Shown here in pieces: positions 28,406 to 48,980 of a stretch of 64,000 bases of DNA. Positions within the stretch are counted from its first letter, which is position 1. Each line of letters opens with the position of its first letter. The stretch is from positions 2,750-66,749 of the forward strand of contig CAZVXT010000003.1 in NCBI GenBank assembly GCA_964631145.1. Reading direction: 5' to 3'. The notes beneath the pieces were generated by a model. The model was not told where the DNA came from. It saw nothing but the letters and a program-made list of their open reading frames with translations, and ran no database searches. A program made the translations under genes and the position numbers. The DNA is from an uncultured Candidatus Saccharibacteria bacterium (GTDB lineage Bacteria; Patescibacteriota; Doudnabacteria; UBA920).

Positions 28406-28428
28406 TAATATAATAAGGAGCTAAAATT

Positions 28429-28611: not shown

Positions 28612-28627
28612 ATACAATTTATAATAA

Positions 28628-28655
28628 AAAACCCGCCTAATGGCGGGTTTTTTTA
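28628..28655. terminator. Terminator.
   Basis: aacccgcc-taat-ggcgggtt followed by T7. Confidence 0.7.
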
Positions 28656-28731
28656 TGGTGGACCCCAGCGGACTCGAACCGCTCACCTCCTCGGTGCAAA
28701 CGAGGCGCTCTACCAGATGAGCTAGGGGCCC
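28656..28731 (-). tRNA. tRNA-Ala(TGC) with G3:U70 and encoded CCA.
   Basis: Minus-strand cloverleaf with anticodon loop TTTGCAC and G3:U70 in the acceptor stem. Confidence 0.85.
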
Positions 28732-28843: not shown

Positions 28844-29854
28844 ATGTGGTTTGGAAAAGATAAATCTATTTTAGGTATTGATATTGGCACCTCTACTATT
28901 AAGATGGTCCAAATTGATCAAGATAAAAAATCCCTTAAAACTTACGGGATTGTTGATTTGATTGAGCCTATTACAGCTCAAACGAGTACAGAAGTTATTG
29001 ATCAAACAGCACAATTATTGTCTAGTTTGATATCAAAAGCTGGAGCAACTACTAGAAAGAGCGCTGTTAGTTTGCCAAATTCGGCAGTTTTTACTTCAGT
29101 TATAGAATTGCCAAAAATGGCAGATAGTGAATTAGAGCAAGCTTTAGGTTTTGAAGCAAAAAAATACATACCACTTCCTTTATCAGAAGTTTCTTTAACA
29201 TGGACAAATATCGCAGATGATGCGGCGACAAGTACAATGAAAATTTTGTTAATTGCCGTTCCAAAAATGACTAGAGATGTATTTTTGAAAATATTTCAGC
29301 AAGCAGGACTTGATTTAGAAGTTGTAGAGATAGAACCATTAGCACTTGTCCGCAGTTTAGTCACAGATATTTCAAAGAATGATGTTATAATTGATATAGG
29401 TGCAAAAGTTACTGCAATTAATTTTATTAAACAAGGTTTGTTGCAGTTAACAAGAACGATAAATGTTGGCGGCGATACTCTTACAGATAAAATTGCACAG
29501 AGCTTAAATTTACAATTTGATAGAGCAGAACAATTTAAGAGAGACTTTGGTTTAAATAATACAGAATTTTTACCAGAAACTTTAAAGCCTGTACTCTCTA
29601 GTATTAAGCAAGAAGTTAAGCAAGTTATAGATATTTACAAATCTCATAGTATAAATACTGATCGCATTGTTTTGGTTGGTGGTGGATCACAGATGCCAGG
29701 TATAACAGAATTTTTTAAAGATTTGGTACCAGAAGTGGTATTGGGAAGCGTTTTGTCCCGAATTAATTATGATTCAAATATTGAATCTCCTTTAAAAAGG
29801 TATAGTACTCAACTGCCAATAGCTATAGGTTTGGCATTGAGAGAAAACGACTAA
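28844..29854 (+). CDS. pilM: Type IV pilus assembly protein PilM.
   Basis: Actin-like ATPase fold with N-terminal ILGIDIGTSTIK. Confidence 0.8.
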   Translation: MWFGKDKSILGIDIGTSTIKMVQIDQDKKSLKTYGIVDLIEPITAQTSTEVIDQTAQLLSSLISKAGATTRKSAVSLPNSAVFTSVIELPKMADSELEQALGFEAKKYIPLPLSEVSLTWTNIADDAATSTMKILLIAVPKMTRDVFLKIFQQAGLDLEVVEIEPLALVRSLVTDISKNDVIIDIGAKVTAINFIKQGLLQLTRTINVGGDTLTDKIAQSLNLQFDRAEQFKRDFGLNNTEFLPETLKPVLSSIKQEVKQVIDIYKSHSINTDRIVLVGGGSQMPGITEFFKDLVPEVVLGSVLSRINYDSNIESPLKRYSTQLPIAIGLALREND

Positions 29855-29855
29855 A

Positions 29856-30440
29856 ATGGCAGATATTAATTTATTAAATCCAGAAAATTCTACATCTACA
29901 GCCCTCAGGGTTTCTACTGAGCGCATTTTTGAAAGACTTATGATGGCTTTAGTTATTTTGCTTATTGCTGCTTACGGGGTGTTTATTGGATTAAATTATT
30001 TAAATCAAAAGCAAATTGATAAAGAAGAGGCAACTGTAAAGTCTTTCCAGTCAGAAATTAGCAGCAATTCTAAAAGACAAGAGTTGATTACTAGGCAAGG
30101 GCAAGTAGAGGAAGTTAATAAGCTTTTGGCTAAACATATGTATTGGTCCAAGCTCCTGCCAGAATTATCTAGAGTGACTTTAAAGTCTGCTAATTATTCT
30201 GGTATGCAAGTTGCTGGGGATGGTAGTTTGGATTTGACTGTTACAACGCCAAGTTATTCTGATGCAGAAAAGTTTTTGCAGGTTTTTGATTTGCCTGAAT
30301 ATAACAAGATGTTTTCTAACGTCAAAATTATGTCTTTAAGCCGAACTCAAAAAGATCAACAACTCCAAACAATCATGAGAATTAAGCTAACAATCAATCC
30401 AGAATTATTCTCTAGTAAGCCTTTATATAACAATAATTAA
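29856..30440 (+). CDS. pilN: PilN-like protein.
   Basis: Single TM helix plus coiled coil; operon position. Confidence 0.6.
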   Translation: MADINLLNPENSTSTALRVSTERIFERLMMALVILLIAAYGVFIGLNYLNQKQIDKEEATVKSFQSEISSNSKRQELITRQGQVEEVNKLLAKHMYWSKLLPELSRVTLKSANYSGMQVAGDGSLDLTVTTPSYSDAEKFLQVFDLPEYNKMFSNVKIMSLSRTQKDQQLQTIMRIKLTINPELFSSKPLYNNN

Positions 30441-30447
30441 TAGCAAC

Positions 30448-31056
30448 ATGAGTACCTTTAAAGAAAGATTAAATAGCATGCCAAGGGCGCAGCTTGGAAA
30501 CCCGTTGATGCATATCATTGTTTTGGCAGTTATTGCTGGATTGTTTACTTGGTTTATATTGATTCCTAAATATCAAGCTTATAGTGCTAATAAAGATCGC
30601 TTGGATGGTATGCAAAAGCAAAGATTGTCTTTGCAAAATGACACCAAAGACCTAAATAGACTTATAGAGTCTTTAGATTCTTCTAAAGAAGATGTTAAAT
30701 TGTTGGATGAAGCATTGCCTTTATCTGACCGTGCAACTCGCACTAGCGTATTAATAGAGAATTATGCAATATCTTCTGGGTTGCAATTAGCTCAGTTAAA
30801 TGTAGATGGAATAGAAGATACTCTAAGTGCTGGTAATAAAAAAGATTTAACAACCCCTTACGATCAACAAAGAAAGCTAACACCTTCAAGGATGACTGTG
30901 TCTGTTACAGGTACAGTCGAGCAATTTAGAAATTTCTTAGAATTGTTAGAAAAATCTGGACGTATTATTGATGTTGAAAATTTGGATGTTGTAACTAGCG
31001 AATCATTAGTAAAGTTTACAGTTATACTTAATACTTATTCTTATCTAGCCCAGTAA
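30448..31056 (+). CDS. pilO: PilO-like protein.
   Basis: TM helix plus coiled coil; operon position. Confidence 0.55.
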   Translation: MSTFKERLNSMPRAQLGNPLMHIIVLAVIAGLFTWFILIPKYQAYSANKDRLDGMQKQRLSLQNDTKDLNRLIESLDSSKEDVKLLDEALPLSDRATRTSVLIENYAISSGLQLAQLNVDGIEDTLSAGNKKDLTTPYDQQRKLTPSRMTVSVTGTVEQFRNFLELLEKSGRIIDVENLDVVTSESLVKFTVILNTYSYLAQ

Positions 31057-31057
31057 T

Positions 31058-31333
31058 ATGACTAAAAAACAAATTTTTGCATTAATTGTAATCATTATAT
31101 CTTTTGGCGGAGCTATTGTTATGGCTTTTTTGACCTGGCGCCAGTTAACACCGCGTAATAAATTTTCACTTACTCAAAATGCAGTCACTCAATCTGGGAG
31201 CGCTATTTTACCAAAAGGTAATCAATTAGACTTTGATTCTTTAAAGAACTTCAATTCTAATAAAACGCTATTTCCTTATCCTGTGGTCAATCCTTCCGAA
31301 GTCGGTAGTACTTTAAATAATTTGATTAAATAA
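31058..31333 (+). CDS. Small membrane-anchored protein (PilP-like position).
   Basis: N-terminal TM helix; 91 aa. Confidence 0.4.
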   Translation: MTKKQIFALIVIIISFGGAIVMAFLTWRQLTPRNKFSLTQNAVTQSGSAILPKGNQLDFDSLKNFNSNKTLFPYPVVNPSEVGSTLNNLIK

Positions 31334-31334
31334 G

Positions 31335-33125
31335 ATGAATTCAACTAGTCCATCGGTTAAAACCTTTGGCAGTTTTGAACAATTTTTGCATGATCATGGG
31401 TTTTTGAATAAAACCCAGTATGATAAATTGATTAGTTTAAAATCTGCTAAATTTGGTTCAGCCTCTGAAATAATGGATCCAAGTAAATTATCAGATTTGC
31501 TAATAACTGAGAAATTACTTGAAGAAGAAGATGTTGCTAAAGCAAAAGCAGCTTTTTTAAATTTACCTTATATCGATCTCGCTAAAGAAACAGTGGTTGA
31601 TCAAGTTTTGGATTTGGTACCTTCAGAGTCCCGCAATTATTACAAAATGATTCCTTTTTCTTTGCAAGGAAAAGATTTAAAAATTGCTTTATATGACCCT
31701 TCTAATTTACAAGCGTTAGAAGCTTTAGAGTTTTTAGGTCAAAAAGATGATTATCAGATACATATTTATGTAGCATCAATGTCCGCTATTAATGCTTTTT
31801 TGCAAGGCAAAAAAAATATTAAAGATGTAGTAGTAGAAGCATTAGATGACCTAGGTGATAATGTTATAAAAGAAAAACCAGAACAAGAAAAGCCTCAAAA
31901 TACTCAAGTTCAAGAAGGTTCTTTAACTACTGATCAAGCTCCTATTATCAAAATCGTAGAAGTTATTTTATCTAATGCTATTGAAGCTAATGCTTCTGAC
32001 ATTCATATTGAGCCTTCTGAGACAGATGTAAGGGTGCGTTATCGCATTGATGGTATTTTGCATACATCACTAAGACTTCCAAAAAATGTTTTGTCTGCTA
32101 TCGTGTCTCGTATTAAAATTTTATCTAATTTAAAAATTGACGAAACTAGACTGCCTCAAGATGGTCGTTTTCATGCCGAGTTGGCGAAAAAATCAGTTGA
32201 TTTGCGTGTGTCTACTTTACCTTTGATGTATGGCGAAAAGATTGTTATGCGTATTTTGGATAAGACTGCTTCTGTTCCAACACTTGAACAATTAGGTATT
32301 AGAGGTAAGGCTTTATCGTGGGTAAAAGAAAATATAATGAAAACTCACGGCGTGTTTTTAATAACAGGACCTACTGGTAGTGGTAAATCAACAACTTTAT
32401 ATTCTATTTTGAGTTTGCGCAATACTAATGATGTAAATATTGTAACCTTGGAAGATCCAGTAGAATATTTTATCGAAGGGGTCAATCAAAGTCAGATTAA
32501 GCCAGAAATAGGATTAACTTTTGCAGCTGGACTGCGTAGTATTCTCCGTCAAGATCCTAATATTGTGATGGTTGGTGAGATCCGTGATGAAGAGACTGCA
32601 GAGTTAGCCGTGCATGCCGCATTGACTGGTCACTTAGTATTTTCTACACTTCACACTAACAATGCAGTAGGTGCTATTCCACGTTTAGCTAACATGAATA
32701 TCGAACAATTTTTGCTAGGCGCTTCTATTAATTTGGTTATGGCGCAGCGTTTGGTTAGAAGGTTGTGTGATAACTGTAAAAAACCTATAGAATTATCTGA
32801 TGTATTGAAAAAAGAATTAGATACTGCTTTGGCAACTGTGCCAAAAGAGTATTTGGATAACTTTGATCCAAAAACCTATAAAGTTTATCAAGCAGTAGGG
32901 TGTGATAAATGCGGTAATATCGGTTACAAGGGTAGGTTTGGGATCTATGAAGTATTGCCAATGTTTACAGAAATTCAGGACCTGATTTTTAGCAAACTTC
33001 CAGCTCATAAAATTTATGAAGCAGCTGCAAAATTAGGGATTATTACTATGAAACAGGATGGTTTGGTTAAAGTTGCTCGCGGCGAAACTAGTTTTGAAGA
33101 AATCGCTCGTGTAACAACAGAATAA
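31335..33125 (+). CDS. pilB: Type IV pilus assembly ATPase PilB (GspE family).
   Basis: Walker A GPTGSGKST; tetracysteine CDNC ... CDKC. Confidence 0.9.
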   Translation: MNSTSPSVKTFGSFEQFLHDHGFLNKTQYDKLISLKSAKFGSASEIMDPSKLSDLLITEKLLEEEDVAKAKAAFLNLPYIDLAKETVVDQVLDLVPSESRNYYKMIPFSLQGKDLKIALYDPSNLQALEALEFLGQKDDYQIHIYVASMSAINAFLQGKKNIKDVVVEALDDLGDNVIKEKPEQEKPQNTQVQEGSLTTDQAPIIKIVEVILSNAIEANASDIHIEPSETDVRVRYRIDGILHTSLRLPKNVLSAIVSRIKILSNLKIDETRLPQDGRFHAELAKKSVDLRVSTLPLMYGEKIVMRILDKTASVPTLEQLGIRGKALSWVKENIMKTHGVFLITGPTGSGKSTTLYSILSLRNTNDVNIVTLEDPVEYFIEGVNQSQIKPEIGLTFAAGLRSILRQDPNIVMVGEIRDEETAELAVHAALTGHLVFSTLHTNNAVGAIPRLANMNIEQFLLGASINLVMAQRLVRRLCDNCKKPIELSDVLKKELDTALATVPKEYLDNFDPKTYKVYQAVGCDKCGNIGYKGRFGIYEVLPMFTEIQDLIFSKLPAHKIYEAAAKLGIITMKQDGLVKVARGETSFEEIARVTTE

Positions 33126-33129
33126 CACT

Positions 33130-33555
33130 ATGGATATTATTACTAATAAAAAATTTTCATTAAGAAATGTCCCGTTTATAAGTCTGTATGGTAGGAGTGT
33201 TTGTTTGGTAGATGATGACGAAGAGTCTTTAAGTGTGTATGAATACAAACTTAAATCTGTTGATATAAAAGTTTTGCCTTATAAACATTTAAAAGATTTA
33301 TTATCTGATCATATGTCCTCAGAAACAGAAGTTGTAATATTAAATCCTTTAATAAATAATACCTTGTACGATTTAAGATGGATTGAAAAGCTCAAGCAAT
33401 TTTATAGCCCTAAACCTATCTTAACTATAAGTAAAGGCATGCAAGACTCTCAATTAGATGCTATTATGACTATAGGTGTAAACTATCATATTAATCGTGA
33501 TTTAGCTGGTCCGCAGGATTTATTGATAGCTTTAGAACAGCTTGTAAGAAATTAA
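33130..33555 (+). CDS. Degenerate receiver (pseudo-response-regulator) domain protein.
   Basis: VCLVDDDEE aligns to the CheY acidic pocket, but the phospho-acceptor position reads ILNPL (Asp replaced by Asn) and the conserved Lys is absent. Confidence 0.45.
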   Translation: MDIITNKKFSLRNVPFISLYGRSVCLVDDDEESLSVYEYKLKSVDIKVLPYKHLKDLLSDHMSSETEVVILNPLINNTLYDLRWIEKLKQFYSPKPILTISKGMQDSQLDAIMTIGVNYHINRDLAGPQDLLIALEQLVRN

Positions 33556-33564
33556 AATAAAAAC

Positions 33565-34635
33565 ATGTATAAAGCTAGCGAATTAGAATTAAATAAGTTA
33601 TTAGAAATTACTCTTGAGCGCAATGCTTCTGATTTGCATTTGCAAGTAGGAGAGCCGCCAATATTACGTATAGACAGTCAGCTTAATAGGTTGGAAGACT
33701 ACCAAGTTTTTAGTCAGGATGCAATTGAGGATTTGATTGAGGTAATGTTGAATGCAGAACAAAAGAAGAAGTTTTTAGAAGAAAAACAATTGGATTATTC
33801 TTATTCTTATAAAGAAAGTGCACGTTTCCGCGTTAATGTTTATATGGCTCAAGGTGTTTGGGCTGTAGCTTTTCGTTTGATACCGACTAATATCAAAACT
33901 TTAGAGGAATTGGGCTTGCCTCCAATGCTTAAAAAGTTTACAGAAAATAAACAAGGGTTGGTTTTGATGGTAGGTCCTACTGGTCATGGTAAGTCTACTG
34001 CTCTAGCCGCTATGATTAATGAGATTAATAATACTCGTAGTGAACACATATTGACCATTGAAGATCCTGTAGAATTTTTATTTACACATAAGCAATCTTT
34101 TATATCTCAACGTGAGGTTGGGTTGGATACTGTATCCTTTGATTCTGCGTTAAAATCTGCTTTACGTGAAGATATTAATGTTGTGCTGGTAGGTGAAATG
34201 CGTGACCTAGAATCTATCTCTGCCACTCTAACCCTAGCTGAAACAGGACATTTAATTTTTGCCACAATGCACACCAATGATGCAGCTCAAAGTATTGATC
34301 GTGTGGTGGATGTATTTCCAGCAGAACAGCAAGCGCAGATTCGTGCGCAGTTAGCAAATACTTTGTTAGGTGTTGCAAGTTTGCGTTTGTTACCTAAAGT
34401 TGGAGGAGGGCGTATACCGGCTACAGAAATTATGGTTGTCAATCATGCTGTGCGTAATGTTATTAGAGATAATAAAATTTACGAGATAGCAAACATTATT
34501 CATACAAGTATGGATGAAGGAATGATCCCTTTAGATAAAAGTTTGGCGCAATTAGTTCAGCAAGGTGTTATAGAACTTAGTGTGGCGCAAAATTATGTAT
34601 TGGATAATGATTACTTCATGTCCTTAATTGGTTAA
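33565..34635 (+). CDS. pilT: Twitching-motility ATPase PilT.
   Basis: Walker A GPTGHGKST; 356 aa. Confidence 0.9.
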   Translation: MYKASELELNKLLEITLERNASDLHLQVGEPPILRIDSQLNRLEDYQVFSQDAIEDLIEVMLNAEQKKKFLEEKQLDYSYSYKESARFRVNVYMAQGVWAVAFRLIPTNIKTLEELGLPPMLKKFTENKQGLVLMVGPTGHGKSTALAAMINEINNTRSEHILTIEDPVEFLFTHKQSFISQREVGLDTVSFDSALKSALREDINVVLVGEMRDLESISATLTLAETGHLIFATMHTNDAAQSIDRVVDVFPAEQQAQIRAQLANTLLGVASLRLLPKVGGGRIPATEIMVVNHAVRNVIRDNKIYEIANIIHTSMDEGMIPLDKSLAQLVQQGVIELSVAQNYVLDNDYFMSLIG

Positions 34636-34640
34636 TTTTT

Positions 34641-35846
34641 ATGAAATTTTCTTATCAAGCCAGAAACAATCAAGGTGAATTAAAAAAGGGTTTTGTCATT
34701 GCAGCAAATAGTGATAAAGCTGAACAGCTGTTGGCTAATAATGGCTTGGTTATTATTAGCCTTAATGTTCAGAAAGATAATTTGCTGCAAAAGATCGACT
34801 CTTTATTAAACCGAGTTAATTATAAGGACCTGGTAGTATTTTCTAGGCAGTTGTCCACGTTGGTAGCTGCTAGGGTGCCGATTTTGCAGTGTTTGCGTAT
34901 TTTAGAAAATCAAATTCCTAGTAAAGGACTTTTGGTAATTATTAGAAATTTAATTGCTTCTATAGAAAGTGGACAAAGTCTATCTTTGGCGATGTCTAAG
35001 CATCCTGAGGTTTTTGGAAATGTTTATATTAGCTTGGTTAAAAGTGGTGAAGCTTCAGGAAACGTTTCTGATTCTTTATCTTATTTAGCAGACCAGTTAG
35101 AAAAAGATTATGATTTGCGTTCTAAGGTTAGGTCAGCATTAACTTATCCTGGGTTTGTTTTATCAGCTTTGGGCGTTGTAGGAGTTTTGATGTTTAAATT
35201 TGTTTTGCCAAGCTTGGTATCTGTTTTGAAAGAACAAAATGCAGAATTACCTTTTGTGTCCCGTATTTTGATTCAGTTTACAGATTTTTTCCAAGTGTAT
35301 TGGTGGGTGGTCTTGATGATTATGCTTGGCGGGGCAGCTTTGATCAAAGTCTATATTTCAAGCAAGTCTGGGCGATATAATTGGGACTATGTAAAAATTT
35401 ATTTACCTGTTATTGGAGATATCTTACAAAAAGTTTACATGGCTAGATTTTCTAGAAACCTATCTACCTTGGTTTCTGGGGGGTTGCCAATTATTCAAGC
35501 TTTGCGTATTGTAGCAGATGTAATTAACAATGCGGTTTATAGAGATATTATGTTGCAAACTGCAGAACAGGTAACTAATGGAAAAAGCATTAGTGATTCT
35601 TTAGCAAAGCACGAACAGTTTCCTCCTTTGGTAACCCAGATGGTTAGAGTGGGGGAACAAACTGCAGAGCTTGATTCTATTTTGTTAAAGCTCGCTTTAT
35701 TCTTTGAAAAAGAAGTAGATACTAAAATCGCAACTCTTTCTAGTTTGTTAGAGCCTATCATTATGGTGATATTAGGATTAGGTGTCGGTGTGTTGGTTGC
35801 GGGTGTTCTGCTTCCAATTTATAACCTTGCAAGCTCTGTTAATTAG
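34641..35846 (+). CDS. pilC: Pilus platform protein PilC (GspF family).
   Basis: Two GspF repeats and TM helices; 401 aa. Confidence 0.85.
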   Translation: MKFSYQARNNQGELKKGFVIAANSDKAEQLLANNGLVIISLNVQKDNLLQKIDSLLNRVNYKDLVVFSRQLSTLVAARVPILQCLRILENQIPSKGLLVIIRNLIASIESGQSLSLAMSKHPEVFGNVYISLVKSGEASGNVSDSLSYLADQLEKDYDLRSKVRSALTYPGFVLSALGVVGVLMFKFVLPSLVSVLKEQNAELPFVSRILIQFTDFFQVYWWVVLMIMLGGAALIKVYISSKSGRYNWDYVKIYLPVIGDILQKVYMARFSRNLSTLVSGGLPIIQALRIVADVINNAVYRDIMLQTAEQVTNGKSISDSLAKHEQFPPLVTQMVRVGEQTAELDSILLKLALFFEKEVDTKIATLSSLLEPIIMVILGLGVGVLVAGVLLPIYNLASSVN

Positions 35847-35972: not shown

Positions 35973-36389
35973 ATGGTGGTGAATAAAGTGAAAAATCACA
36001 ACCAAAAAGGGTTTACGTTAATTGAACTTTTGGTGGTAATCGCCATCATTGGTCTATTAGCTTCAGTAGTATTGTTGGCATTAAACTCTGCTCGTCAAAA
36101 ATCTCGTGACGCTAAGCGTTTAGCTGATGTTCGTCAACTTTCCAGCGCATTGGAACTCTATTTCAATGATAACAATGGATATCCGGCATCTCTATCTAGC
36201 TTGGTCACTAACTATATGGGACAATTGCCAACCTTCCCAACTCCAAGCGACAGCTGTAACACAGCTTCCTACGCTTATACTGGTACATCCGGTGCTAGCA
36301 CATATCAGTTATTGTTCTGTGTCTCTGCTCCAACTGGCGGTATTACCCCAGCTGGTACACACACCCTAACTCAAGCTGGTATTCAATAG
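35973..36389 (+). CDS. pilA: Major type IV pilin.
   Basis: Prepilin leader ... NQKG|FTLIELLVVIAIIG with Glu at +5. The true start may be GTG 35979. Confidence 0.85.
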   Translation: MVVNKVKNHNQKGFTLIELLVVIAIIGLLASVVLLALNSARQKSRDAKRLADVRQLSSALELYFNDNNGYPASLSSLVTNYMGQLPTFPTPSDSCNTASYAYTGTSGASTYQLLFCVSAPTGGITPAGTHTLTQAGIQ

Positions 36390-36399
36390 TTAGCTATAT

Positions 36400-36432
36400 A
36401 ATAAACAAGTCCTTCTTTGAAGGGCTTTTTAT
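36400..36432 (+). terminator. Pilin terminator.
   Basis: aagtccttc-tttg-aagggctt followed by a T-run. Confidence 0.55.
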
Positions 36433-36469
36433 TTACGCTATTTTTAACTTTAATATTTATTTAGTTGTT

Positions 36470-38470
36470 TTGCTGGTTTGGTTTGATATACTTGATTATA
36501 TGGAAAACATTTTAAATAAGCTACGATTACCATATAGGGAAGATACTTTGTATGGGATTTTATTTCTATTTGCCTTTATCGCTCCATTGGCTTTTAATCC
36601 TTGGCTACTGGAGGGGTATGAAACCACTCGCTTCGCACTAACTTTGATATTAACAGGGGCAGCGGTATTGGTTGCGGTTTATAATAATAAAAAAATCAGT
36701 ATTACTTGGTTGTCTATTTTTTGTGTGGGATTTTTATTAATTAATATCCTTAGTCTAATTACAAGTAAAGATGTAGTGATTAGCTTATTTGGTTTATACG
36801 GTAGATTTACTGGCTCGATACTATTTCTTATATGCTGGTTAGTGATGATTTTTTTATTTGCCTCAATTAAAGATTTTGGAAAATATAAAACCATTTATAA
36901 AATGTTAGTAGTAAGTGGTTCATTAGTTTCTGTACTAGGTATCTTGCATAGTTTTGGTATAGGGTTTTATGCTGGACCTGATAGTGGTGCTAGACCGATT
37001 GTTCCAGGTTTTATTGGCAACCAAAATTTTGCTGCCATGTATTTGTTAGGAATTTTTCCATTATTACTACCTTTATTTACTGAAAGTAAAAATTTTTATA
37101 CTAAGATTTATTATGCACTTACCGGGTTATTTATGGTGTGGGCAGTTATGGTATTTGCGAGCCGGGGCGCTATTTTGGCTTTGGCTGGAGCTTTATTGTT
37201 TGGATTGGGGTTATTGTTAATAAGAAAGACTTCGTGGCTATCAAGATTAATTGTTGCTGTTGTTTTAATTATTTCGGTTGTCTTTGGGTTTTTATTTTAT
37301 AGTACAACTAGATATGAAAATACAGCTGAAACTTTTACTAGCCAAGAGGTAAGTGCTCAAACACGCTTGGTGGTATGGACAAAGAGTGTAGAATTGATCA
37401 AGCAATATTGGTATTTAGGATTAGGACCAGGAAATTTCTTTATTGGATTTAAAACTTTTGGCGACAATATTTTACCCAGCAATGAAAGATTTGATGATGC
37501 TCATAATTTATATTTGCAATTGGCTTCTACCATAGGAATTTTTGGTTTATTATTATTCTTGGTTATCTTGTCCATTGGGTTCTATATAACTTTAAAACAC
37601 TATTGGAAGACTCAAGATTTGTGGTCATGGGGTTTTTGTTTAGCCTTTATAGGCTTGGCTATTAGTTATACTTTCAACCCTGTTAGTCTACCTAACTGGA
37701 TATTATTAGCTGTTTTGATTGGTATAGTAAGTGGAAATTATTTAGATGATATTAGAGCGCTAAGTATTCAAAACAAATTTTTAAAATTATTTATAATTGT
37801 TTGTTCTGCTTTGTTAATTAGCGCAGGAATTGGTTTTTATGGGAGTGAGTTGTTTGCCACTGCCACAGTTCATGCTTATAGGGCTAATCAAATAGAGTCT
37901 GCAAAAAAATATGGAAAGGCTGCTTTAATTCTTAACCCATTTAATAATACTGCTCGGGCATATTATACAGCTAGCTTAATTAAGACCAATTACGATCATC
38001 AAAAAATTAGAGGTTATATAGAAGATTTTTATAAATACCACAAGTTGTCTTCAGGAAATCAAAAAAATACAGCAGATTTGTATTTTATGCTGTACCGTAA
38101 AACTAATGATCAGGCTGATTTAGATAATAGTCTAAAGCATTTAGAAACATCTTTGCAGTTAGAACCTAATTATTCTCAGTTATTAATTAATTCAGGATAC
38201 TTGCTATATCAGGCGGGGAAGATTGATGAAGCAGAATTAAAGCTTAAACAAGCTGTGGGTTTAAGTAGTCAAGGGAAATTCTTTTATGCAGAGTTATTAT
38301 TGGCTCAGATCAATCTCGATCACGGTAAATTTGATCAAGCATTGTGGTATTTAGATCAAGCAAATAATATTCAACCAAATATTTTATTAAAGAAAGCTCA
38401 AGAAGACATTAAATCTAAAAAATTACCAAATAATAAACTTCCTATTTATTTGCCAGACGTAGATATATGA
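36470..38470 (+). CDS. O-antigen-ligase (Wzy_C)-like polytopic membrane protein fused to C-terminal TPR repeats.
   Basis: About 12 TM helices followed by TPR-like repeats (YYTASL ... LLYQAGKIDEAE ...). Confidence 0.6.
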   Translation: MLVWFDILDYMENILNKLRLPYREDTLYGILFLFAFIAPLAFNPWLLEGYETTRFALTLILTGAAVLVAVYNNKKISITWLSIFCVGFLLINILSLITSKDVVISLFGLYGRFTGSILFLICWLVMIFLFASIKDFGKYKTIYKMLVVSGSLVSVLGILHSFGIGFYAGPDSGARPIVPGFIGNQNFAAMYLLGIFPLLLPLFTESKNFYTKIYYALTGLFMVWAVMVFASRGAILALAGALLFGLGLLLIRKTSWLSRLIVAVVLIISVVFGFLFYSTTRYENTAETFTSQEVSAQTRLVVWTKSVELIKQYWYLGLGPGNFFIGFKTFGDNILPSNERFDDAHNLYLQLASTIGIFGLLLFLVILSIGFYITLKHYWKTQDLWSWGFCLAFIGLAISYTFNPVSLPNWILLAVLIGIVSGNYLDDIRALSIQNKFLKLFIIVCSALLISAGIGFYGSELFATATVHAYRANQIESAKKYGKAALILNPFNNTARAYYTASLIKTNYDHQKIRGYIEDFYKYHKLSSGNQKNTADLYFMLYRKTNDQADLDNSLKHLETSLQLEPNYSQLLINSGYLLYQAGKIDEAELKLKQAVGLSSQGKFFYAELLLAQINLDHGKFDQALWYLDQANNIQPNILLKKAQEDIKSKKLPNNKLPIYLPDVDI

Positions 38471-39282
38471 TAAAAAATACTCCTCAAGATTGCATGGGCA
38501 ATCAACCAATTACCACAAAGTTATGGATAGCGTTAAAGCTTTTAAGTAATCCTATAACTTTATTATTAGATAAGTTAGGTTACCTTAAAAACCCTATGTA
38601 TATTACAAGGCAAGGGGTCAAGTTTTTTACTCGAGGTAAAACAACTGATATAAATGATGCGGTTGTGGTTTTGTCAGGGCACGAATACCCTAAAGAGTTA
38701 TTAGGATTATCTGAGATGGGTCATCCTGTAATTTTAGATGTGGGAGGGCATATTGGCACTTTTACTATGTATATAAAAAACTTATATCCTCATGCAAAAA
38801 TTATTGCCATGGAACCTGTGTCTGATAACCGTGTTTTTTATAATCGTAATATTAAGCTAAATAATTATCAAAATGTCACATTGCTCCCGTATGCTTTATA
38901 TTCTCAAACTGGACAATTTTACATAGATTTATCTAATAAGCAATATGACGCTGTAAGTGTGCAAACCGAAAAACCAATCCATGATGATTATGTGACCATA
39001 GACGCCGTAAGTTTTGAAGATGTTATTAATAAAAATAATATTGCTCATATCGACTTGATGAAGTTAGATATTGAAGGAGCAGAATATGATTTATTAAATA
39101 CTCAATTACCAATAATGTCTAATACCGTTAAGCGAATTATTATGGAGTATCATCCCGCAGGAGATAAGGCAAAGCGAAATCAGCTTGTATCTTATTTTGA
39201 CCAAGCAGGGTGGGGATTGGTATATGAGACAAAAAATATTTTAGGGTTTGATAATAATAGATTTGTTGTAGAAAATGAATAA
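38467..39282 (+). CDS. FkbM-family methyltransferase.
   Basis: VILDVGGHIGTFT motif; overlaps the upstream gene by ATGA. Confidence 0.6.
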   Translation: MIKNTPQDCMGNQPITTKLWIALKLLSNPITLLLDKLGYLKNPMYITRQGVKFFTRGKTTDINDAVVVLSGHEYPKELLGLSEMGHPVILDVGGHIGTFTMYIKNLYPHAKIIAMEPVSDNRVFYNRNIKLNNYQNVTLLPYALYSQTGQFYIDLSNKQYDAVSVQTEKPIHDDYVTIDAVSFEDVINKNNIAHIDLMKLDIEGAEYDLLNTQLPIMSNTVKRIIMEYHPAGDKAKRNQLVSYFDQAGWGLVYETKNILGFDNNRFVVENE

Positions 39283-40570
39283 GTCTTTATTAAAATTTGT
39301 ATTACTCATTTTGCCATCAATATGTTGGTATTATTTGGGTTTGTTTATAACTATTTCTTTATGGTATCCAGAAGGCTTGTCTTCTGGATTGCTATATAGT
39401 CATATTATTAATTTTTCTATAATTTATATTTTATGGCTATTAGTCTGTTTTATTTTTACTCTATTTGACTTTGATATATTTTTAAATAGCTATAAAATTA
39501 TTGCTCGAATTATTAGTGTAATGTCTTTAAATGGAGTTATTGCAGTGGCTTATTTTTATTTTCAGCCTGCATTAACGCTAACTCCGCGCAGATTTTTATT
39601 AACCCATATAGCTATTACAACAATTGGTTTATTTATTTGGTATGCATTTTTGCAATTGATTTTGCCATACTTTAGTAAGCGTCTTATTTATATTTATGAA
39701 GGTGTAAATCAAGAACGATTTTTAAATTGGTTTGAAAAAGCAGAACTAACTAGTAGTTTTTGGAGGTTTGCTGGTGTCTTAAATAGCGACATGGGTCAAA
39801 ATCAAGAGTCTGGACTTGTGGTGGTTAATGCAGAAATTATAAATAATTCGCATGTTGCCAGCTCTTTGCTCTTATTAAAGCAAAAAGGTTGGGATATTAT
39901 TAAGCAAGAAGTTTTGCACGAACAATTGACCAGAAGAGTTATGGCTGATCATTTAAACGAGCAGTGGTTCTTGGACTTTGTTCGTTATGACAGGCATGTA
40001 ATATTTGATTTGATTAAAAGAATTGCTGATATTTTTTTTGGACTGATTGGCTTGGCTATTTTAGTAATTTTATATATACCGATAGCTTTAATAATCAAAA
40101 TATCCGATAAAGGGAGTGTATTTTTTGTGCAAGAGAGAGTGGGTTTGTATAATAAGACTTATAGATTGTATAAGTTTCGGACAATGAAAAACGGGCAAGG
40201 TGATACTTGGACTATGCACAATGATGACCGTATAACAACTTTTGGAAAGTGGCTTAGAAAGCTACGTATTGACGAGCTCCCGCAAGTGATTAATATTTTA
40301 AAAGGTGAAATGAGTCTTGTTGGTCCTCGTCCAGAGCAGCCTCATTTTGTAAATGAGTTAGCAGTCAAAATCCCTTTTTATAACCAGAGGCACTTTGTAA
40401 AGCCTGGTTTAACTGGGTGGGCGCAATTACATGTTTACGCTGCTTCTATAGAAGAAAGTCGTCAAAAGCTCGAGTATGATTTATATTATGTCAAACACCG
40501 CAGTGTTTTGTTTGATATAGAGATAGTATTAAGAACTATTTTTCATATTTTATCTTTAGCCGGTAGATAA
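39275..40570 (+). CDS. Polyprenyl-phosphate sugar phosphotransferase (bacterial sugar transferase family).
   Basis: KFRTM ... DELPQ ... GEMSLVGPRPE catalytic region; N-terminal TM helices. Confidence 0.8.
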   Translation: MNKSLLKFVLLILPSICWYYLGLFITISLWYPEGLSSGLLYSHIINFSIIYILWLLVCFIFTLFDFDIFLNSYKIIARIISVMSLNGVIAVAYFYFQPALTLTPRRFLLTHIAITTIGLFIWYAFLQLILPYFSKRLIYIYEGVNQERFLNWFEKAELTSSFWRFAGVLNSDMGQNQESGLVVVNAEIINNSHVASSLLLLKQKGWDIIKQEVLHEQLTRRVMADHLNEQWFLDFVRYDRHVIFDLIKRIADIFFGLIGLAILVILYIPIALIIKISDKGSVFFVQERVGLYNKTYRLYKFRTMKNGQGDTWTMHNDDRITTFGKWLRKLRIDELPQVINILKGEMSLVGPRPEQPHFVNELAVKIPFYNQRHFVKPGLTGWAQLHVYAASIEESRQKLEYDLYYVKHRSVLFDIEIVLRTIFHILSLAGR

Positions 40571-40590
40571 GCTAGTGTATAATTATATAT

Positions 40591-40971
40591 ATGTGGCAAA
40601 AACCTTGGTTTAAAATTATTATATTCTTGTTCGTATTAATTGTTTTGTTAGGGCTTTCTTGGTGGGGGTATGTAAATGGGCAAAAAGCTGCTAAGAGCAA
40701 GCAGGTTGTTAAGGATGTTAAATCCGTTATATCTGCTTTAGAATACTTTAAGGCAGATCAAAATCATTATCCTTCTATTGACGAGTACGCTGATAATAAT
40801 ATAATGAGAAATTACCTCAGCAATTTCCCTCCAGTACAATTTGTCTCGGATGTGTGTGATTCGAGTTATAATTATTACAGTTCGAATCCTCAAAGTTACG
40901 AGCTTCGCTTTTGTTTATCAAAATCTGTAAGCGGTTATAAAAAAGGTTGGAATAGTATAATGTCTAAATAA
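40591..40971 (+). CDS. Small membrane-anchored hypothetical protein.
   Basis: N-terminal TM helix; 126 aa. Confidence 0.4.
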   Translation: MWQKPWFKIIIFLFVLIVLLGLSWWGYVNGQKAAKSKQVVKDVKSVISALEYFKADQNHYPSIDEYADNNIMRNYLSNFPPVQFVSDVCDSSYNYYSSNPQSYELRFCLSKSVSGYKKGWNSIMSK

Positions 40972-40977
40972 ATTGAT

Positions 40978-41772
40978 ATGTGGTTTTTAATTTTATTTTT
41001 ATTTACCTTCGGGGTTATAATAGGTAGTTATTTAAATGTATTGGTCTTAAGACTGCCAATTGGCAAAAAAGCTAATGGCAGGTCTTTTTGTTTTGGTTGC
41101 AAGCATCAGTTATCTAGCTTGGATCTTGTCCCTGTTTTAAGTTATTTATTTTTAAAAGGTAAATGTCGTTATTGTAATCAAAAGATTTCTTCTAGATATT
41201 TAATAGTTGAGCTTGTTACAGGAACCCTTTTTGCTTTGAGTGCTTATATTCTTTTTCCCCATTCGCTCTATGATATAGTTTTTCTAGTTTTTGCATTGTA
41301 TGTTGTATGTGTTTGTATTGTGGTTTTTATAATAGACTTGGAACATTACTTAATTTTGGATAAAGTTATTTTCCCTAGTATTTTCATAACCGCACTATTT
41401 AAAATTTCATTAGTTGTTATAAGTTCTGGAAGTTTTTTTGAATTATTATACAAAACACTCTTTGCTTTATTAGTAGCACCTCTAATCTTTTATGTATTGT
41501 GGTTAGTTTCTAAAGGGAGGTGGATGGGGTATGGTGATGTAAAGTTTGCAATATTTATGGCTATAGTTTTAGGCTTTCCTGTGGTAACAGTAGGTTTATT
41601 TGGATCGTTCATTATGGGAAGTATTGTATCTGTAATTTTAATGATATTTTATAACAAACATTTGGCATCCAGAATTCCGTTCGGTACTTTTCTTGCGGTT
41701 TCGACTATCCTGTCTTTATTTTATGGGGAGCAAATTTTGGATTGGTATTTACGTATTATGCTTTTAAAATAA
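40978..41772 (+). CDS. pilD: Prepilin peptidase (A24 family).
   Basis: CFGC ... CRYC zinc motif and polytopic membrane domain. Confidence 0.85.
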   Translation: MWFLILFLFTFGVIIGSYLNVLVLRLPIGKKANGRSFCFGCKHQLSSLDLVPVLSYLFLKGKCRYCNQKISSRYLIVELVTGTLFALSAYILFPHSLYDIVFLVFALYVVCVCIVVFIIDLEHYLILDKVIFPSIFITALFKISLVVISSGSFFELLYKTLFALLVAPLIFYVLWLVSKGRWMGYGDVKFAIFMAIVLGFPVVTVGLFGSFIMGSIVSVILMIFYNKHLASRIPFGTFLAVSTILSLFYGEQILDWYLRIMLLK

Positions 41773-41867
41773 TCGCACACCTATATTAAAAATGGTTAGC
41801 GGTTTGATATTCAATCACTTTACGGTTGCCGGATTATTATAGTTATATGAACAGACAGTGTTATAAT

Positions 41868-42491
41868 ATGATTACTAATATGAGCGAGTTAAAAAGTAAA
41901 CTTATTAATCAAGCGGGATTTACAATTACAGAATTAATGGTTGTAATTGTAATTTTTATTACATTGTCCAGTGTGGTTATTTTGCAATGGAATAGTCAAA
42001 CTCCAAACCGATCTTTAAATATTGCTCAAAACGAGTTAGTAACAAATTTGCGAAAAGCACAAAGCTATACTTTGTCTTCACGTAATATAGCAACTAGTAA
42101 CCCAGCTAAATTTTATTTAGTTAGAGTTGCTACTGCAGAAAATACTTATACTATTAATGGAGTTGATAGTAATTATAATTATTATCCATCTATCGAAACC
42201 GTAAGTTTGCCTTCTGGTTTAGACTTTGGTTCGCTATCTTTATACGACCCTGCTAATGGTAGTACCACTGTTCCTGCGTGTGCGCTTTTAATATTTAGTG
42301 CACCATTTGGCAAACTATATTTGGAGGGTGCTGCAACTTGTGACTCTTCTATTACTACCACGTTACAAAATTTGGCTACATTAACTCCAAAAGCAGATAA
42401 ACAATTAACTATAACCATCCGTCATATTAAGCAAGGAGCAACACGAGCTGTAGTAGCTAGGGGGTTAACTGGAAGAATTGATAACAACTAA
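41868..42491 (+). CDS. Minor pilin / pseudopilin.
   Basis: ...NQAG|FTITELMVVIVIF with Glu at +5. Confidence 0.7.
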   Translation: MITNMSELKSKLINQAGFTITELMVVIVIFITLSSVVILQWNSQTPNRSLNIAQNELVTNLRKAQSYTLSSRNIATSNPAKFYLVRVATAENTYTINGVDSNYNYYPSIETVSLPSGLDFGSLSLYDPANGSTTVPACALLIFSAPFGKLYLEGAATCDSSITTTLQNLATLTPKADKQLTITIRHIKQGATRAVVARGLTGRIDNN

Positions 42492-42495
42492 TTAT

Positions 42496-43164
42496 ATGAG
42501 AAATCAAGCAGGACAAACTTTAATAGAAACCATGGTAGCAATGTTTATTTTAGTTATGGGTATTGCAGCTGCTGTGGGGTTGGCAAACTATGCATTATCA
42601 GCCAGCGGCTCTGTTAATAAACAATTGATAGCTATGGGTCTGGCTAGAGAAGGTATGGAAGCGGTAAAGAATATGCGAGATACAAATTGGTTGAAGACGC
42701 CTTTGTCAGCGACTTGCTTTGATTTTTATAGTCAAACAAATACTTCTAATTGTTATACAAACTGGTTAAACGGCACTGGTTATAGCGGTTATAATATTGA
42801 TCCAGGTACCACATCAACATATATCTTAAAATTTGATCAGGCAACAATTAGTTATTGGTCTTTGGTTCCTGAGGCTAATAAATTTGGTTTAAATTATTCA
42901 ACCTCTACTCCAGGCACAGGTTTTTATAATCCTGGTATTGGTGTTTTGTCTTCCGCGGCTACTTCAGATTTTTCCCGATCAATTACTATTAGCAAAGATA
43001 CCAGCTTTTCACCTTTTAATAATGCATCTCTAGGGGGGAGGGTTAAGGTTACAGTTAACGTATGGTGGAAGGACAAGCATTGCCCAGTCTCTGATACTGT
43101 ACCAAGTAGTACAAAATGCAAAGTAACGCTGAATACATACTTAACTAATTGGAAGAATTATTAA
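42496..43164 (+). CDS. Minor pilin-like protein.
   Basis: MRNQAG|QTLIETMVAMFIL with Glu at +5 and Gln at +1. Confidence 0.6.
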   Translation: MRNQAGQTLIETMVAMFILVMGIAAAVGLANYALSASGSVNKQLIAMGLAREGMEAVKNMRDTNWLKTPLSATCFDFYSQTNTSNCYTNWLNGTGYSGYNIDPGTTSTYILKFDQATISYWSLVPEANKFGLNYSTSTPGTGFYNPGIGVLSSAATSDFSRSITISKDTSFSPFNNASLGGRVKVTVNVWWKDKHCPVSDTVPSSTKCKVTLNTYLTNWKNY

Positions 43165-43167
43165 TGT

Positions 43168-43773
43168 ATGCATAAATTAGATTTCAAAATATCAAATAGG
43201 CAGTCAGGGTTTACATTAATGGAAATCATTATAGCAACTGCACTGTTTATTACTGTCGTTGCTTCTGTGATGTCATTGTTCAATTATGTATTGAAGATTA
43301 ACCGTAGAGTACAGGCAATGCGTCAGGTAACTCAAGGTTCCAGAAATTTTACCGAAGCAGTAGTTAGAGAAATACGCAATGGGCAGATCGATTATAACAG
43401 CACCAATTCTAATTGTCCTTCTGCTGGCTATCAATCTACATCAAACTCGTCTTTAGCAATTATTACTTCGTTAGGAGATAGGCTTTGCTACTATCTTAAT
43501 ACCAACACTCAACAGTTGATGTTAAGTAAAACTAGTAGTTCTTCCACCACAGAAGAATCGGTTAATCCTCCTAATTTTAAAATTAGACAAGGCACCTTTA
43601 GATTGATTGTTAGACCTGGTTCTAATCCAAAAGTTAATCCATATCCTGGAGTACAACCTATGGTAACCATTATAGCCAAGTTTGAAGTTCAATTGCCTGG
43701 TGCTATAGAAAGTATGGTTATCCCTTATCAAACAACAATTTCGGCAGATTCATATGACATCCCTCATAACTAA
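43168..43773 (+). CDS. Minor pilin.
   Basis: ...NRQSG|FTLMEIIIATALF with Glu at +5. Confidence 0.7.
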   Translation: MHKLDFKISNRQSGFTLMEIIIATALFITVVASVMSLFNYVLKINRRVQAMRQVTQGSRNFTEAVVREIRNGQIDYNSTNSNCPSAGYQSTSNSSLAIITSLGDRLCYYLNTNTQQLMLSKTSSSSTTEESVNPPNFKIRQGTFRLIVRPGSNPKVNPYPGVQPMVTIIAKFEVQLPGAIESMVIPYQTTISADSYDIPHN

Positions 43774-44548
43774 AAATAAAATCAATTATTCTAAACAGCA
43801 AGGTGTTTCGCTAATGCTTTCTATTTTAGTTTTATCTGCAATTACTGCCATAGCATTTTCTTTGGCAGCCATTGTATTGGTAGAACTACGTTCTTCAGGT
43901 GACGTGTTGCGAACAGAACCTGCATTATATGCTACCTTGGGAGCAAGCGAAGAGGCTTTGTTTCAATACAAGAGGTTTGTAAACGACCGCGAAGATGGAA
44001 GTACTGTAAATACTTTAAATATTGCAACTTGTTTTCCTGCAAATCAAAATATTTGCCAACTTGGGAATGTTGCTTTAACCTTTCCTGGAACACAACCTCT
44101 ACAGTTTGATAATACTCCACGAGTAGAGACTGTTTACGCTGGCACGGTAACCAAAATACCTTTATATACATTAAATAATTTTAATTTACAGTATGGTAAG
44201 ATCGTCTTACAAATTGTGCCAAATGGTACCACTGCTAGCTTAGCAGTCAATATGGTAAAGACAGCTATTGATGGCACAGTCACTGATCCATTATTTACTC
44301 CAAGCTATTCTATTACATCAGCATCTAGTCCGTTACAACTAACTTCATTTGTTGGAAACAATCAATATGATTTGGTTTTAGATAATACTGCTAACTCCAC
44401 TCAAAATATCTTAGTCAGTATCTCTAGTTATGATACTAATAGTACAACCCCAAAAGGTTTGCCATTTATTGGACAACAGGTTCTTAAAATTACAGCTGAT
44501 TATCTTGGGTTAACTAGGGTTTATACTATAAAGATTCCTATACCATAA
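43754..44548 (+). CDS. Pilus-associated protein (PilX-like?).
   Basis: N-terminus ...KQQG|VSLMLSILVL lacks Glu at +5; operon position. Confidence 0.45.
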   Translation: MTSLITKNKINYSKQQGVSLMLSILVLSAITAIAFSLAAIVLVELRSSGDVLRTEPALYATLGASEEALFQYKRFVNDREDGSTVNTLNIATCFPANQNICQLGNVALTFPGTQPLQFDNTPRVETVYAGTVTKIPLYTLNNFNLQYGKIVLQIVPNGTTASLAVNMVKTAIDGTVTDPLFTPSYSITSASSPLQLTSFVGNNQYDLVLDNTANSTQNILVSISSYDTNSTTPKGLPFIGQQVLKITADYLGLTRVYTIKIPIP

Positions 44549-48200: not shown

Positions 48201-48980
48201 ATGTATTATCAAGGGATATCAGATCAAAAATTTCGAGAAATTATAGCAAGTGTGTATCAATACAAGTGCCAATATTGCTTACGTGTTTTTAACATAAATA
48301 ATTTGCAAGTTGATCACATTTATCCAAAAAGTCTTGGTGGTCCGAATGAATTATTTAATTACACTTTGTCTTGTGATTGCTGTAATAGAATAAAATCAAA
48401 TCAAATTTTACATGAAGCAGCTCAAAATTTTTTACAAATGTGGGCAACTATAAAATCTAAAGATATTTTAACAAAGATTAATTTATTGCTAAAAGTTCCT
48501 ATATACTCAACTAAGGGTGTCAAGAAATCGAGCTATAAATCAAATAAATTTCCCAAAGGGAGTTTTTTAAATCCACATGCTTATGGTAATTGCCAATACT
48601 TTAACGATGGGTTAATGCAACGTAATCACGAAAATCACTTTCGTGTTTATAAAAAAATGATTTTGTCTGAGTTTAGTGTTGATAGTGGTAATAGTTCAAT
48701 ATTGATTTTAGAATCTAAAATAAATATTGAATATTTTTTAAATCATTTAGAAATAAATTTTCGAGAATTTATAGATTTTTTAAAATGGATCAAATCGACG
48801 TATGTGAAACTTAAGGACGGAGAAATTGAAGCTTTATGTTTAAGAAATAAAATTACTTACAATCAAAAAGTTAAGGAGTTCTCAACCATCAAGATGGGTT
48901 ATATAGAGAGTATTCATATCGAGCTAAATTATATAAGTAGAATTTGGGCAAATAACTTTTTTGCAAGTATCCCAAATTAA
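48201..48980 (+). CDS. HNH endonuclease-domain protein.
   Basis: CQYC ... DHIYPKSLGG ... N ... CDCCNRIK (HNH with two CxxC pairs); an uncharacterised C-terminal half follows. Confidence 0.7.
   Translation: MYYQGISDQKFREIIASVYQYKCQYCLRVFNINNLQVDHIYPKSLGGPNELFNYTLSCDCCNRIKSNQILHEAAQNFLQMWATIKSKDILTKINLLLKVPIYSTKGVKKSSYKSNKFPKGSFLNPHAYGNCQYFNDGLMQRNHENHFRVYKKMILSEFSVDSGNSSILILESKINIEYFLNHLEINFREFIDFLKWIKSTYVKLKDGEIEALCLRNKITYNQKVKEFSTIKMGYIESIHIELNYISRIWANNFFASIPN

Follow-up and report, generated by a model that had tools for sequence, protein, structure and literature searches.

We analysed a window of 64,000 nucleotides (nt) from contig CAZVXT010000003.1 (assembly GCA_964631145.1), in which a gene for a polytopic Wzy_C enzyme with a C-terminal TPR domain (Wzy_C-TPR) lies inside a type IV pilus operon, next to the gene for the major pilin. 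The DNA has a low GC content (~33%) and unlinked 16S and 23S ribosomal RNA (rRNA) genes, and its nearest relatives are metagenome-assembled genomes of Patescibacteria, many of them labelled Candidatus Doudnabacteria. The pilus operon spans ~16 kb (28.8 to 44.5 kb), with every gene on the + strand (Table 1). It begins with the genes for PilM, PilN-like and PilO-like proteins, a membrane protein of 91 amino acids (aa), PilB, a receiver-like protein, PilT, PilC and the major pilin, and continues with Wzy_C-TPR, an FkbM-family methyltransferase, a phosphotransferase, a 126-aa protein (p126), PilD and four minor pilins. On the 3′ side come a divergent LysM gene and, after it, a DNA ligase gene. No secretin gene was found in the 16-kb operon, which fits an envelope without an outer membrane, as an earlier note on this DNA had supposed.

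Table 1. Genes and features of the type IV pilus operon, with positions in the window
Feature	Position	Strand	Evidence
PilM, PilN-like, PilO-like, 91-aa membrane protein, PilB, receiver-like 141-aa protein, PilT, PilC	28844..35846	+	Pfam PilM_2, PilO; PilB/PilT/PilC translations typical
Major pilin, 138-aa precursor, 125 aa mature, G/FTLIE motif	35973..36389	+	N_methyl E 6.6e-11
Terminator-like hairpin and T-run 3′ of the pilin gene	36407..36437	+	Nine-pair stem, then TTTATTT; consensus match only
Wzy_C (WaaL/PglL-superfamily) polytopic enzyme, 656 aa, 13th transmembrane helix, C-terminal TPR	36500..38470	+	Wzy_C 72.2 bits and TPR matches
FkbM-family S-adenosylmethionine-dependent methyltransferase, soluble	38467..39282	+	TIGR01444 95.8 bits; PF05050 E 3.2e-14
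Polytopic polyprenyl-phosphate glycosyl-1-phosphate transferase	39275..40570	+	Bac_transf 213.6 bits
p126, predicted membrane-anchored paralog of the major pilin	40591..40971	+	hhalign against the mature pilin family, 99.1%
Prepilin peptidase PilD	40978..41772	+	A24_N_bact E 2.9e-29; Peptidase_A24 E 4.4e-11
Four minor-pilin-like genes, 20-22% Ser+Thr	41826..44548	+	N_methyl matches; syntenic in all long loci

The earlier note had described a glycosylation module of three genes immediately after the pilin gene and before the prepilin peptidase. Its descriptions of the pilin, Wzy_C-TPR, FkbM, phosphotransferase and PilD genes were borne out, with domain scores above the cutoffs and the open reading frames (ORFs) confirmed. 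The coupled overlaps can be read directly from the sequence, as an ATGA of 4 nt between the Wzy_C and FkbM genes (38467-38470) and 8 nt between the FkbM and phosphotransferase genes (39275-39282). The Wzy_C gene is indeed the next gene after the pilin gene, but the two are separated by a gap of ~110 nt that holds the terminator-like hairpin (36407-36427); judged from its stem and T-run, this element is a probable attenuator. The module is also not alone between pilin and PilD, as the pilin paralog p126 (40591-40971) had been overlooked. The Wzy_C ORF opens at a TTG at position 36470, and the database protein of 656 aa begins at the ATG at 36500. A promoter scan gave 28 sites against 32 expected in shuffled sequence and hence no excess. 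The major pilin passes the type IV pilin motif test, with KG/FTLIELLVV followed by a hydrophobic helix.

Wzy_C-TPR matches the Pfam family Wzy_C (PF04932) over residues 219-364 with 72.2 bits (cutoff 31.7), and the TPR repeats follow. An AlphaFold2 (AF2) model built from a profile of 17 homologs reached a pLDDT of 88 and a pTM of 0.87. Foldseek aligned the membrane part of this model with the O-antigen ligase WaaL (7tpg_B) over 440 columns, giving a target-normalised TM-score of 0.57, and a profile search with the membrane domain matched WaaL 7TPG at E 1.8e-14. By structure or by sequence, WaaL was the sole non-TPR match in the PDB; a PDB search with the single sequence of the membrane domain gave no match, and only the profile reached WaaL. 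In the model, the fold of the enzyme resembles that of WaaL, and a large loop between transmembrane (TM) helices TM9 and TM10 lies outside. Residues R222, R289 and H335 align with R191 of CmWaaL, the Arg of its vRLKIW motif and the His of EHAHN. Arg/Arg/His sets of this kind are essential in Escherichia coli WaaL (R215/R288/H338) and in PglL (R224/R298/H349) (PMC3643930).

All three residues are invariant in 65 of 65 full-length family members. They belong to a set of 17 invariant residues that further comprises R102, P169, G173, N174, S221, W293, G307, G309, D332, D333, N336, G346, F392 and P394. Hydropathy and the positive-inside rule give a topology of 13 TM helices with the N-terminus inside, which puts all of the invariant residues in outside loops. 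Because of the 13th helix, the TPR domain (~200 residues) is also predicted to lie outside the cell. This domain is the least conserved region of the enzyme in the 65 sequences. In an alignment with a PglL-type protein, an invariant loop motif, GN[PQ]NF, falls in the PglL_A motif region, where that protein has QQPN.

The two genes that follow encode proteins of well-defined families. The FkbM protein scores 95.8 bits against TIGR01444 (cutoff 37.7) and contains no hydrophobic segment; from its family membership, its substrate would be a sugar hydroxyl. The phosphotransferase matches Bac_transf (PF02397) over the full profile with 213.6 bits and has four N-terminal TM segments. Against TIGR03025 it reaches 279 bits, slightly below the cutoff of 295.55.

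The distribution of these genes was assessed in 54 loci from GTDB species representatives, one complete genome (CP064996.1) and 35 further loci from metagenomes, the latter found by a degenerate DNA pattern for p126. ORFs were called for each locus and matched to the proteins of the window, and 65 loci contained the complete interval from pilin to pilD. Of these, all 65 contain p126, 60 contain Wzy_C-TPR, 16 the phosphotransferase and 8 FkbM. The check proposed by the earlier note, whether the ligase-TPR fusion co-occurs with pilA across relatives, therefore gave a strongly positive outcome. In all 54 GTDB loci and in CP064996.1 the Wzy_C-TPR gene lies between the pilin gene (with or without p126) and pilD, and this position is kept although identity within the family drops to ~22-30%. 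Since the arrangement recurs in dozens of genomes with Wzy_C identities down to ~25%, it is not a product of chance. No member of the family was found outside a pilus operon in the ~90 loci fetched, and at least 150 representatives at 50% identity match the enzyme over its full length at E <= 1e-79. The upstream pilus machinery is syntenic in all long related loci; in locus L055 the same upstream genes appear as T2SSE and T2SSF matches.

In six metagenome loci, five of them among the 65 complete intervals, p126 is followed directly by pilD, and no remnant of the Wzy_C gene was found in any of the six. This clean absence indicates that the enzyme is accessory and p126 core. An accessory distribution fits a modifying enzyme, not a part of the core machinery. 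Separately, in one locus (L038, 7032-9992) an extra gene is inserted after p126 and before the Wzy_C gene; its 986-aa product is LCAT/lipase-like and has Ig-like domains.

Glycan cassettes occur in 16 of the 65 complete loci and contain FkbM or class-I methyltransferases, GT2 and GT4 glycosyltransferases, a GDP-mannose 4,6-dehydratase and the phosphotransferase. Every such cassette directly adjoins the Wzy_C gene on its 3′ side, and the phosphotransferase is usually the last gene. Their order differs between loci: L095 has Wzy_C, phosphotransferase and FkbM in succession, and in L012 the GT4 gene is on the opposite strand. In a neighbour-joining tree of the enzyme, the cassette-bearing loci form one main clade, which includes the window, together with isolated cases elsewhere. 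As these isolated cases have other gene orders, they point to repeated gain or remodelling beside the Wzy_C gene. Such variability is typical of a variable glycosylation island, and a variable cassette beside the enzyme speaks for the phosphotransferase product as the enzyme's substrate. We based this argument on adjacency alone; the observation that the phosphotransferase occurs only together with the Wzy_C gene (16 of 16) was dropped, being not significant against a background of 60 in 65. The cassette of the window has no glycosyltransferase, and its simplest product would be one methylated sugar residue, provided that no enzymes encoded elsewhere extend it. The recurrence of methyltransferases in the cassettes (FkbM, Methyltransf_11/23) fits a methylated sugar.

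Next, we considered the pilins as candidate acceptors. Ser and Thr together make up 22% of the mature major pilin and 20-22% of the minor pilins, compared with 10-12% of the cytoplasmic proteins of the operon. In 51 orthologs of the major pilin, a hypervariable disulfide loop contains on average 34% Ser+Thr, and we suggest this loop as the most plausible predicted target. The minor pilins are possible additional acceptors. The C-terminus of the pilin is conserved as FC[LIV][GS]AxTGG...HTLTxAGIQ, with G123, I124 and Q125 each present in at least 90% of the 51 orthologs.

Taken together, we consider it probable on balance that the module is an accessory, pilus-dedicated O-oligosaccharyltransferase (O-OTase)-like unit that moves an undecaprenyl-diphosphate-linked methylated glycan onto pilin. 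This is close to the pilin O-glycosylation with a methylated sugar put forward in the earlier note, an interpretation now partly supported by operon position, accessory distribution, adjoining variable glycan genes, conserved catalytic residues and topology. We infer the donor, the methylation target, the acceptor and its site from the families and features described above. In the pathway that we propose, the phosphotransferase (39275-40570) would load a sugar-1-phosphate on undecaprenyl phosphate at the cytoplasmic face, as its family suggests, and the soluble FkbM protein (38467-39282), again going by family, would O-methylate that sugar. In sister genomes GT2, GT4, other methyltransferases and the GDP-mannose dehydratase would build different glycans in the same slot. 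A putative flippase encoded elsewhere would then move the lipid-linked glycan outward, where Wzy_C-TPR (36500-38470) would act with a WaaL/PglL-type active site at the outer face, its TPR domain being proposed to bind the acceptor. The glycan would be transferred to Ser/Thr of the membrane-anchored major pilin, and possibly of the minor pilins, before the subunit enters the fibre.

Several observations weigh against this proposal. The pilin is an inferred acceptor, and its ending in ...GIQ excludes the C-terminal Ser/Thr rule of the known pilin ligases TfpO and TfpM. The earlier note had proposed to test the C-terminal Ser/Thr region as an acceptor. Thr108 and Thr120 are invariant or nearly so as Ser/Thr; they are kept equally in operons that lack the enzyme, for which reason we rejected them as markers of an acceptor site. 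No flippase of the Wzx or PglK type was found in the module of the window or in the pilin-to-pilD interval of the 65 loci. Among the 60 loci that bear the enzyme, 44 have no adjoining glycan genes, and in those genomes the donor must come from elsewhere. The synteny is mostly inherited within one lineage, and the 60 loci are not 60 independent observations. Neither PglL_A (PF15864) nor Wzy_C_2 (PF11846) matched the enzyme at E <= 0.01, whereas a control protein (P0096) matched both. Finally, seven of ten distant relatives of the enzyme lie outside filament loci, as described below. An MsbA/PglK-like ABC exporter encoded at 12006-13772 was considered as the missing flippase and set aside, its architecture being the sole evidence.

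We compared the enzyme with characterised systems. Reviews distinguish four classes of O-OTases (TfpO, TfpM, PglS and PglL), all of them characterised in Proteobacteria (PMC9829042, PMC12645811), and pilin-specific O-OTases are typically encoded beside their substrate (PMC3643930, PMC12645811). TfpO/PilO of Pseudomonas aeruginosa 1244 and Acinetobacter and TfpM of Moraxellaceae resemble the enzyme described here in being Wzy_C proteins encoded downstream of a pilin gene that has the same orientation, as well as in being accessory; the pilin-specific TfpO and TfpM are present in some lineages or strains only and use lipid-linked glycans (PMC9829042, PMC12645811). The adjacency to the pilin gene is likewise found here, with the gap of 110 nt in the window and a position kept in 60 of 65 loci, in some of which p126 intervenes. 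However, TfpO and TfpM have 420-470 aa and no C-terminal outside domain, compared with 656 aa and a TPR domain of ~200 aa here; they target a C-terminal Ser/Thr of the pilin (PMC9829042), and they borrow O-antigen or capsule units, while here an initiating transferase and tailoring enzymes are encoded inside the pilus operon. The PilO/TfpO-like logic suggested by the earlier note does not hold, as it would call for an enzyme of 440-470 aa rather than 656 aa and for a pilin ending in Ser/Thr rather than ...GIQ.

PglL of Neisseria and PglS of Acinetobacter baylyi (substrate ComP) are Wzy_C O-OTases of 520-620 aa that carry an additional periplasmic domain at the C-terminus. The sites that they glycosylate are internal to pilin or to pilin-like proteins, and the PglS gene lies beside that of ComP. 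They share with our enzyme the Arg/Arg/His set and the region aligned with GN[PQ]NF. In contrast to them, our enzyme matches neither the PglL_A nor the Wzy_C_2 model of Pfam, and its C-terminal domain is a canonical TPR superhelix; their hosts are diderm proteobacteria, whereas here the host belongs to the Patescibacteria and the operon has no secretin gene. WsfB of Paenibacillus alvei and WsaB of Geobacillus stearothermophilus are Wzy_C O-OTases of monoderm bacteria and resemble the present enzyme (PMC2943079). WsfB and PglL carry C-terminal TPR motifs, WsaB is accompanied by a separate TPR protein (WsaA), and the clusters include an initiating phosphotransferase (WsaP) and make an O-methylated glycan (PMC2943079). 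They differ in that the acceptor is an S-layer protein, an ABC transporter exports the glycan as a long polymer, and no pilus operon is involved.

WaaL (7TPG), the solved structure nearest to our enzyme, has the same twelve-helix core, outside catalytic loop and Arg/Arg/His set. However, it acts on lipid A-core, belongs to lipopolysaccharide (LPS) loci and lacks both the 13th helix and the TPR domain, and the GN[PQ]NF region of our enzyme did not align with it. No LPS genes were seen among the window proteins scanned, and the enzyme was always encoded in a pilus operon, a setting unlike that of WaaL proper. The TMTC1-4 proteins and PMT O-mannosyltransferases of eukaryotes and actinobacteria combine a polytopic transferase of lipid-linked sugars with non-cytoplasmic TPR repeats that are thought to engage protein substrates. 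The likeness is an analogy only, as these proteins have another fold class and use a polyprenyl-monophosphate sugar donor, and we claim no homology. In the literature we found neither a described pilin O-OTase of Patescibacteria nor a Wzy_C-TPR protein associated with pilin. A study of Saccharibacteria pili mentions pilin glycosylation only as a GlycoPP prediction (PMC12206443).

Beyond the tight Wzy_C-TPR family the search scores drop from 332 to 101 bits, and we inspected the genomic context of ten Wzy_C(-TPR) proteins below this gap. Three lie in type IV filament loci and seven in polysaccharide or unrelated loci, and we conclude that the Wzy_C-TPR architecture alone does not imply pilin glycosylation. 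One of the three, the full-length homolog P0046 (L060, 8001-9836), aligns in hhalign with a probability of 99.1% over 557 columns that include the GNxNFAAM motif and the TPR domain. Its gene follows two pilin genes in a proteobacterial-type locus of the order pilS-pilR-pilin-pilin-X-pilB-pilC-pilD. P0038 (L061, 6001-7878) follows an MSHA-like pilin that ends in Ser, in a genome of the Ectothiorhodospiraceae, and P0080 (L099, 2619-4658) lies in a Tad pilus locus between tadBC and rcpC-secretin. Adjacency to pilin has arisen in very distant lineages. As a side observation, the Wzy_C-TPR gene of P0031 (L056, 8001-10079) overlaps the end of two multihaem cytochrome genes, with more cytochromes, a phosphotransferase and a GT4 nearby; this protein might glycosylate extracellular cytochromes.

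A broader proposal, which we put forward tentatively and think more doubtful than likely, is that pilin-adjacent Wzy_C-TPR proteins form an unrecognised, cross-phylum O-OTase class for type IV filaments, the fifth beside PglL, PglS, TfpO and TfpM. The TPR domain would recognise an internal site of the pilin, and a swappable cassette within the operon would diversify the pili. P0046, P0038 and P0080 may be members of such an undescribed class, whose scope may cover type IVa pili in Patescibacteria and Proteobacteria and possibly Tad pili; the uncleavable p126 could then be a membrane-resident partner.

Wzy_C enzymes serve many acceptors, and Wzy_C-TPR could instead be a ligase whose acceptor is not pilin but, for instance, a protein of the S-layer or another surface protein, a lipid anchor or a polymer of the wall. 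The three genes would then make an envelope glycoconjugate independent of pilin, and co-transcription with the pilus genes would reflect co-regulation only. Such an enzyme would be in keeping with distant relatives that adjoin an SLH protein with glycosyltransferases and a MurJ-like flippase, ABC-transporter glycan genes, or Wzz/Wza, with a pilin acceptor site that could not be pinned, and with the lack of adjoining donor genes at most loci. It does not account for the fixed slot between pilin and pilD, occupied in 60 of 65 loci down to ~25% identity by a family never met outside a pilus operon in the ~90 loci fetched, nor for the homologs that adjoin pilins in unrelated Proteobacteria. Apart from the pilins and p126, moreover, no other candidate acceptor gene is conserved nearby. 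We regard a non-pilin acceptor as unlikely, while still giving it some weight.

The Pfam family Wzy_C also includes polymerases, and a Wzy-dependent pathway begins with a phosphotransferase and glycosyltransferases. In NCBIfam the phosphotransferase is matched best by the exopolysaccharide (EPS) subfamily, and the module might accordingly be imagined to make an exopolysaccharide or capsule coupled to pili, as EPS is in Myxococcus. However, a Wzx flippase, a chain-length regulator or an export component was seen in no locus, the cassette of the window has no glycosyltransferase with which to build a repeat unit, and the enzyme stands alone in 44 loci. Its Arg/Arg/His set is that of ligases and O-OTases (PMC3643930), and a protein-binding TPR domain would be unexpected in a polymerase. 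We judge a polymerase improbable. That Wzy_C-TPR is instead a non-catalytic structural or scaffold part of the secretin-less pilus machine, with its TPR domain in the manner of PilF/PilW/Tgl or TadD, we consider very improbable: its TPR repeats weakly match Tgl (E 8e-5) and PilW (E 3e-4) and one distant homolog sits in a Tad locus, the usual place of the TPR protein TadD, but the 17 outer-face residues including Arg/Arg/His are 100% invariant in 65 sequences while the TPR domain is least conserved, the gene is cleanly absent from six operons that show no other difference, and it has glycan genes clustered at its side.

Among the surface machines of Patescibacteria, type IV pili are the best conserved, and they drive attachment to the host and motility in cultivated Saccharibacteria (PMC12206443). 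A dedicated and mostly conserved O-OTase-like gene within the pilus operon, with cassettes that differ between close relatives, offers a testable route to variation of the pilus surface. Such variation could matter for host range, for the evasion of phages and for immune-like recognition in a large uncultivated group. If pilin is indeed the acceptor, pilin glycosylation as known from Gram-negative pathogens would extend to a very different branch of bacteria, and the O-OTase classes, characterised so far only in Proteobacteria apart from the S-layer enzymes, would be widened. The new architecture could serve glycoengineering, provided that it accepts new sequons or methylated sugars. Were the fifth class real, cassette swaps would diversify the very pili that episymbionts use for host contact.

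The remaining gene of the pilin-to-pilD interval, p126, was compared with the mature pilin family by hhalign, with a probability of 99.1% and an E-value of 1.3e-18 over 113 columns. Its hydrophobic N-terminus lacks the G/FxxxE cleavage and methylation motif, and it fails the type IV pilin motif test. The comparison shows p126 to be a full-length paralog of the major pilin; with a predicted membrane anchor and no processing motif, it cannot serve as a normal subunit of the fibre. Because it is also present where the Wzy_C gene is absent, p126 is not simply the partner of the enzyme; it may be a non-polymerisable, pilin-like component of the pilus machine. A homolog search with p126 returned only itself. 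Its single-sequence AF2 model was poor (pLDDT 56) and was left unused, and the homology rests on hhalign.

Elsewhere in the window, a three-gene unit at 54903-58266 encodes a nucleotidyltransferase that consists of the GlmU N-terminal domain only, an ArnT/PMT_2-like GT-C glycosyltransferase (32 nt overlap) and a TIGR00375-family protein. The earlier note had listed the nucleotidyltransferase and a GT39 glycosyltransferase at 54.9-57.0 kb alongside the glycosylation module. Both genes exist, the former as a GlmU N-terminal-domain-like protein and the latter as a generic PMT_2/ArnT-like GT-C enzyme, but between them and the module lie the genes for DNA ligase, an HNH protein and 23S-5S rRNA. We rejected a link to the module, given the housekeeping and rRNA genes in between and the general-function annotation. 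The unit, which has no link to the pilus module, could be a glycosylation step of its own that uses a polyprenyl-phosphate sugar.

The 16S (17699-19166) and 23S (49590-53524) rRNA genes are separated by 30 kb, a stretch that includes the whole pilus operon, and separate tRNA-Ile and tRNA-Ala genes lie on the minus strand at 27956-28731. Compared with the Rfam model, the 23S rRNA gene has ~1 kb of extra length, and within 51300-52500 only model positions 1465-1961 are covered. An insert of ~700 nt (about 51640-52200) contains Rfam tRNAs at 51675-51745, 51896-51968 (tRNA-Glu) and 52038-52110 (tRNA-Pro), with a fourth tRNA detected by ARAGORN at 52114-52189. The presence of tRNA genes in an intervening sequence of the 23S gene suggests that the 23S rRNA is cut into fragments by tRNA processing. 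About 600 nt upstream of the 23S rRNA gene lies a free-standing HNH endonuclease ORF (48201-48980). Finally, an Rfam LOOT RNA match was detected at 22871-22988, with 80 bits against a gathering score of 46.4.

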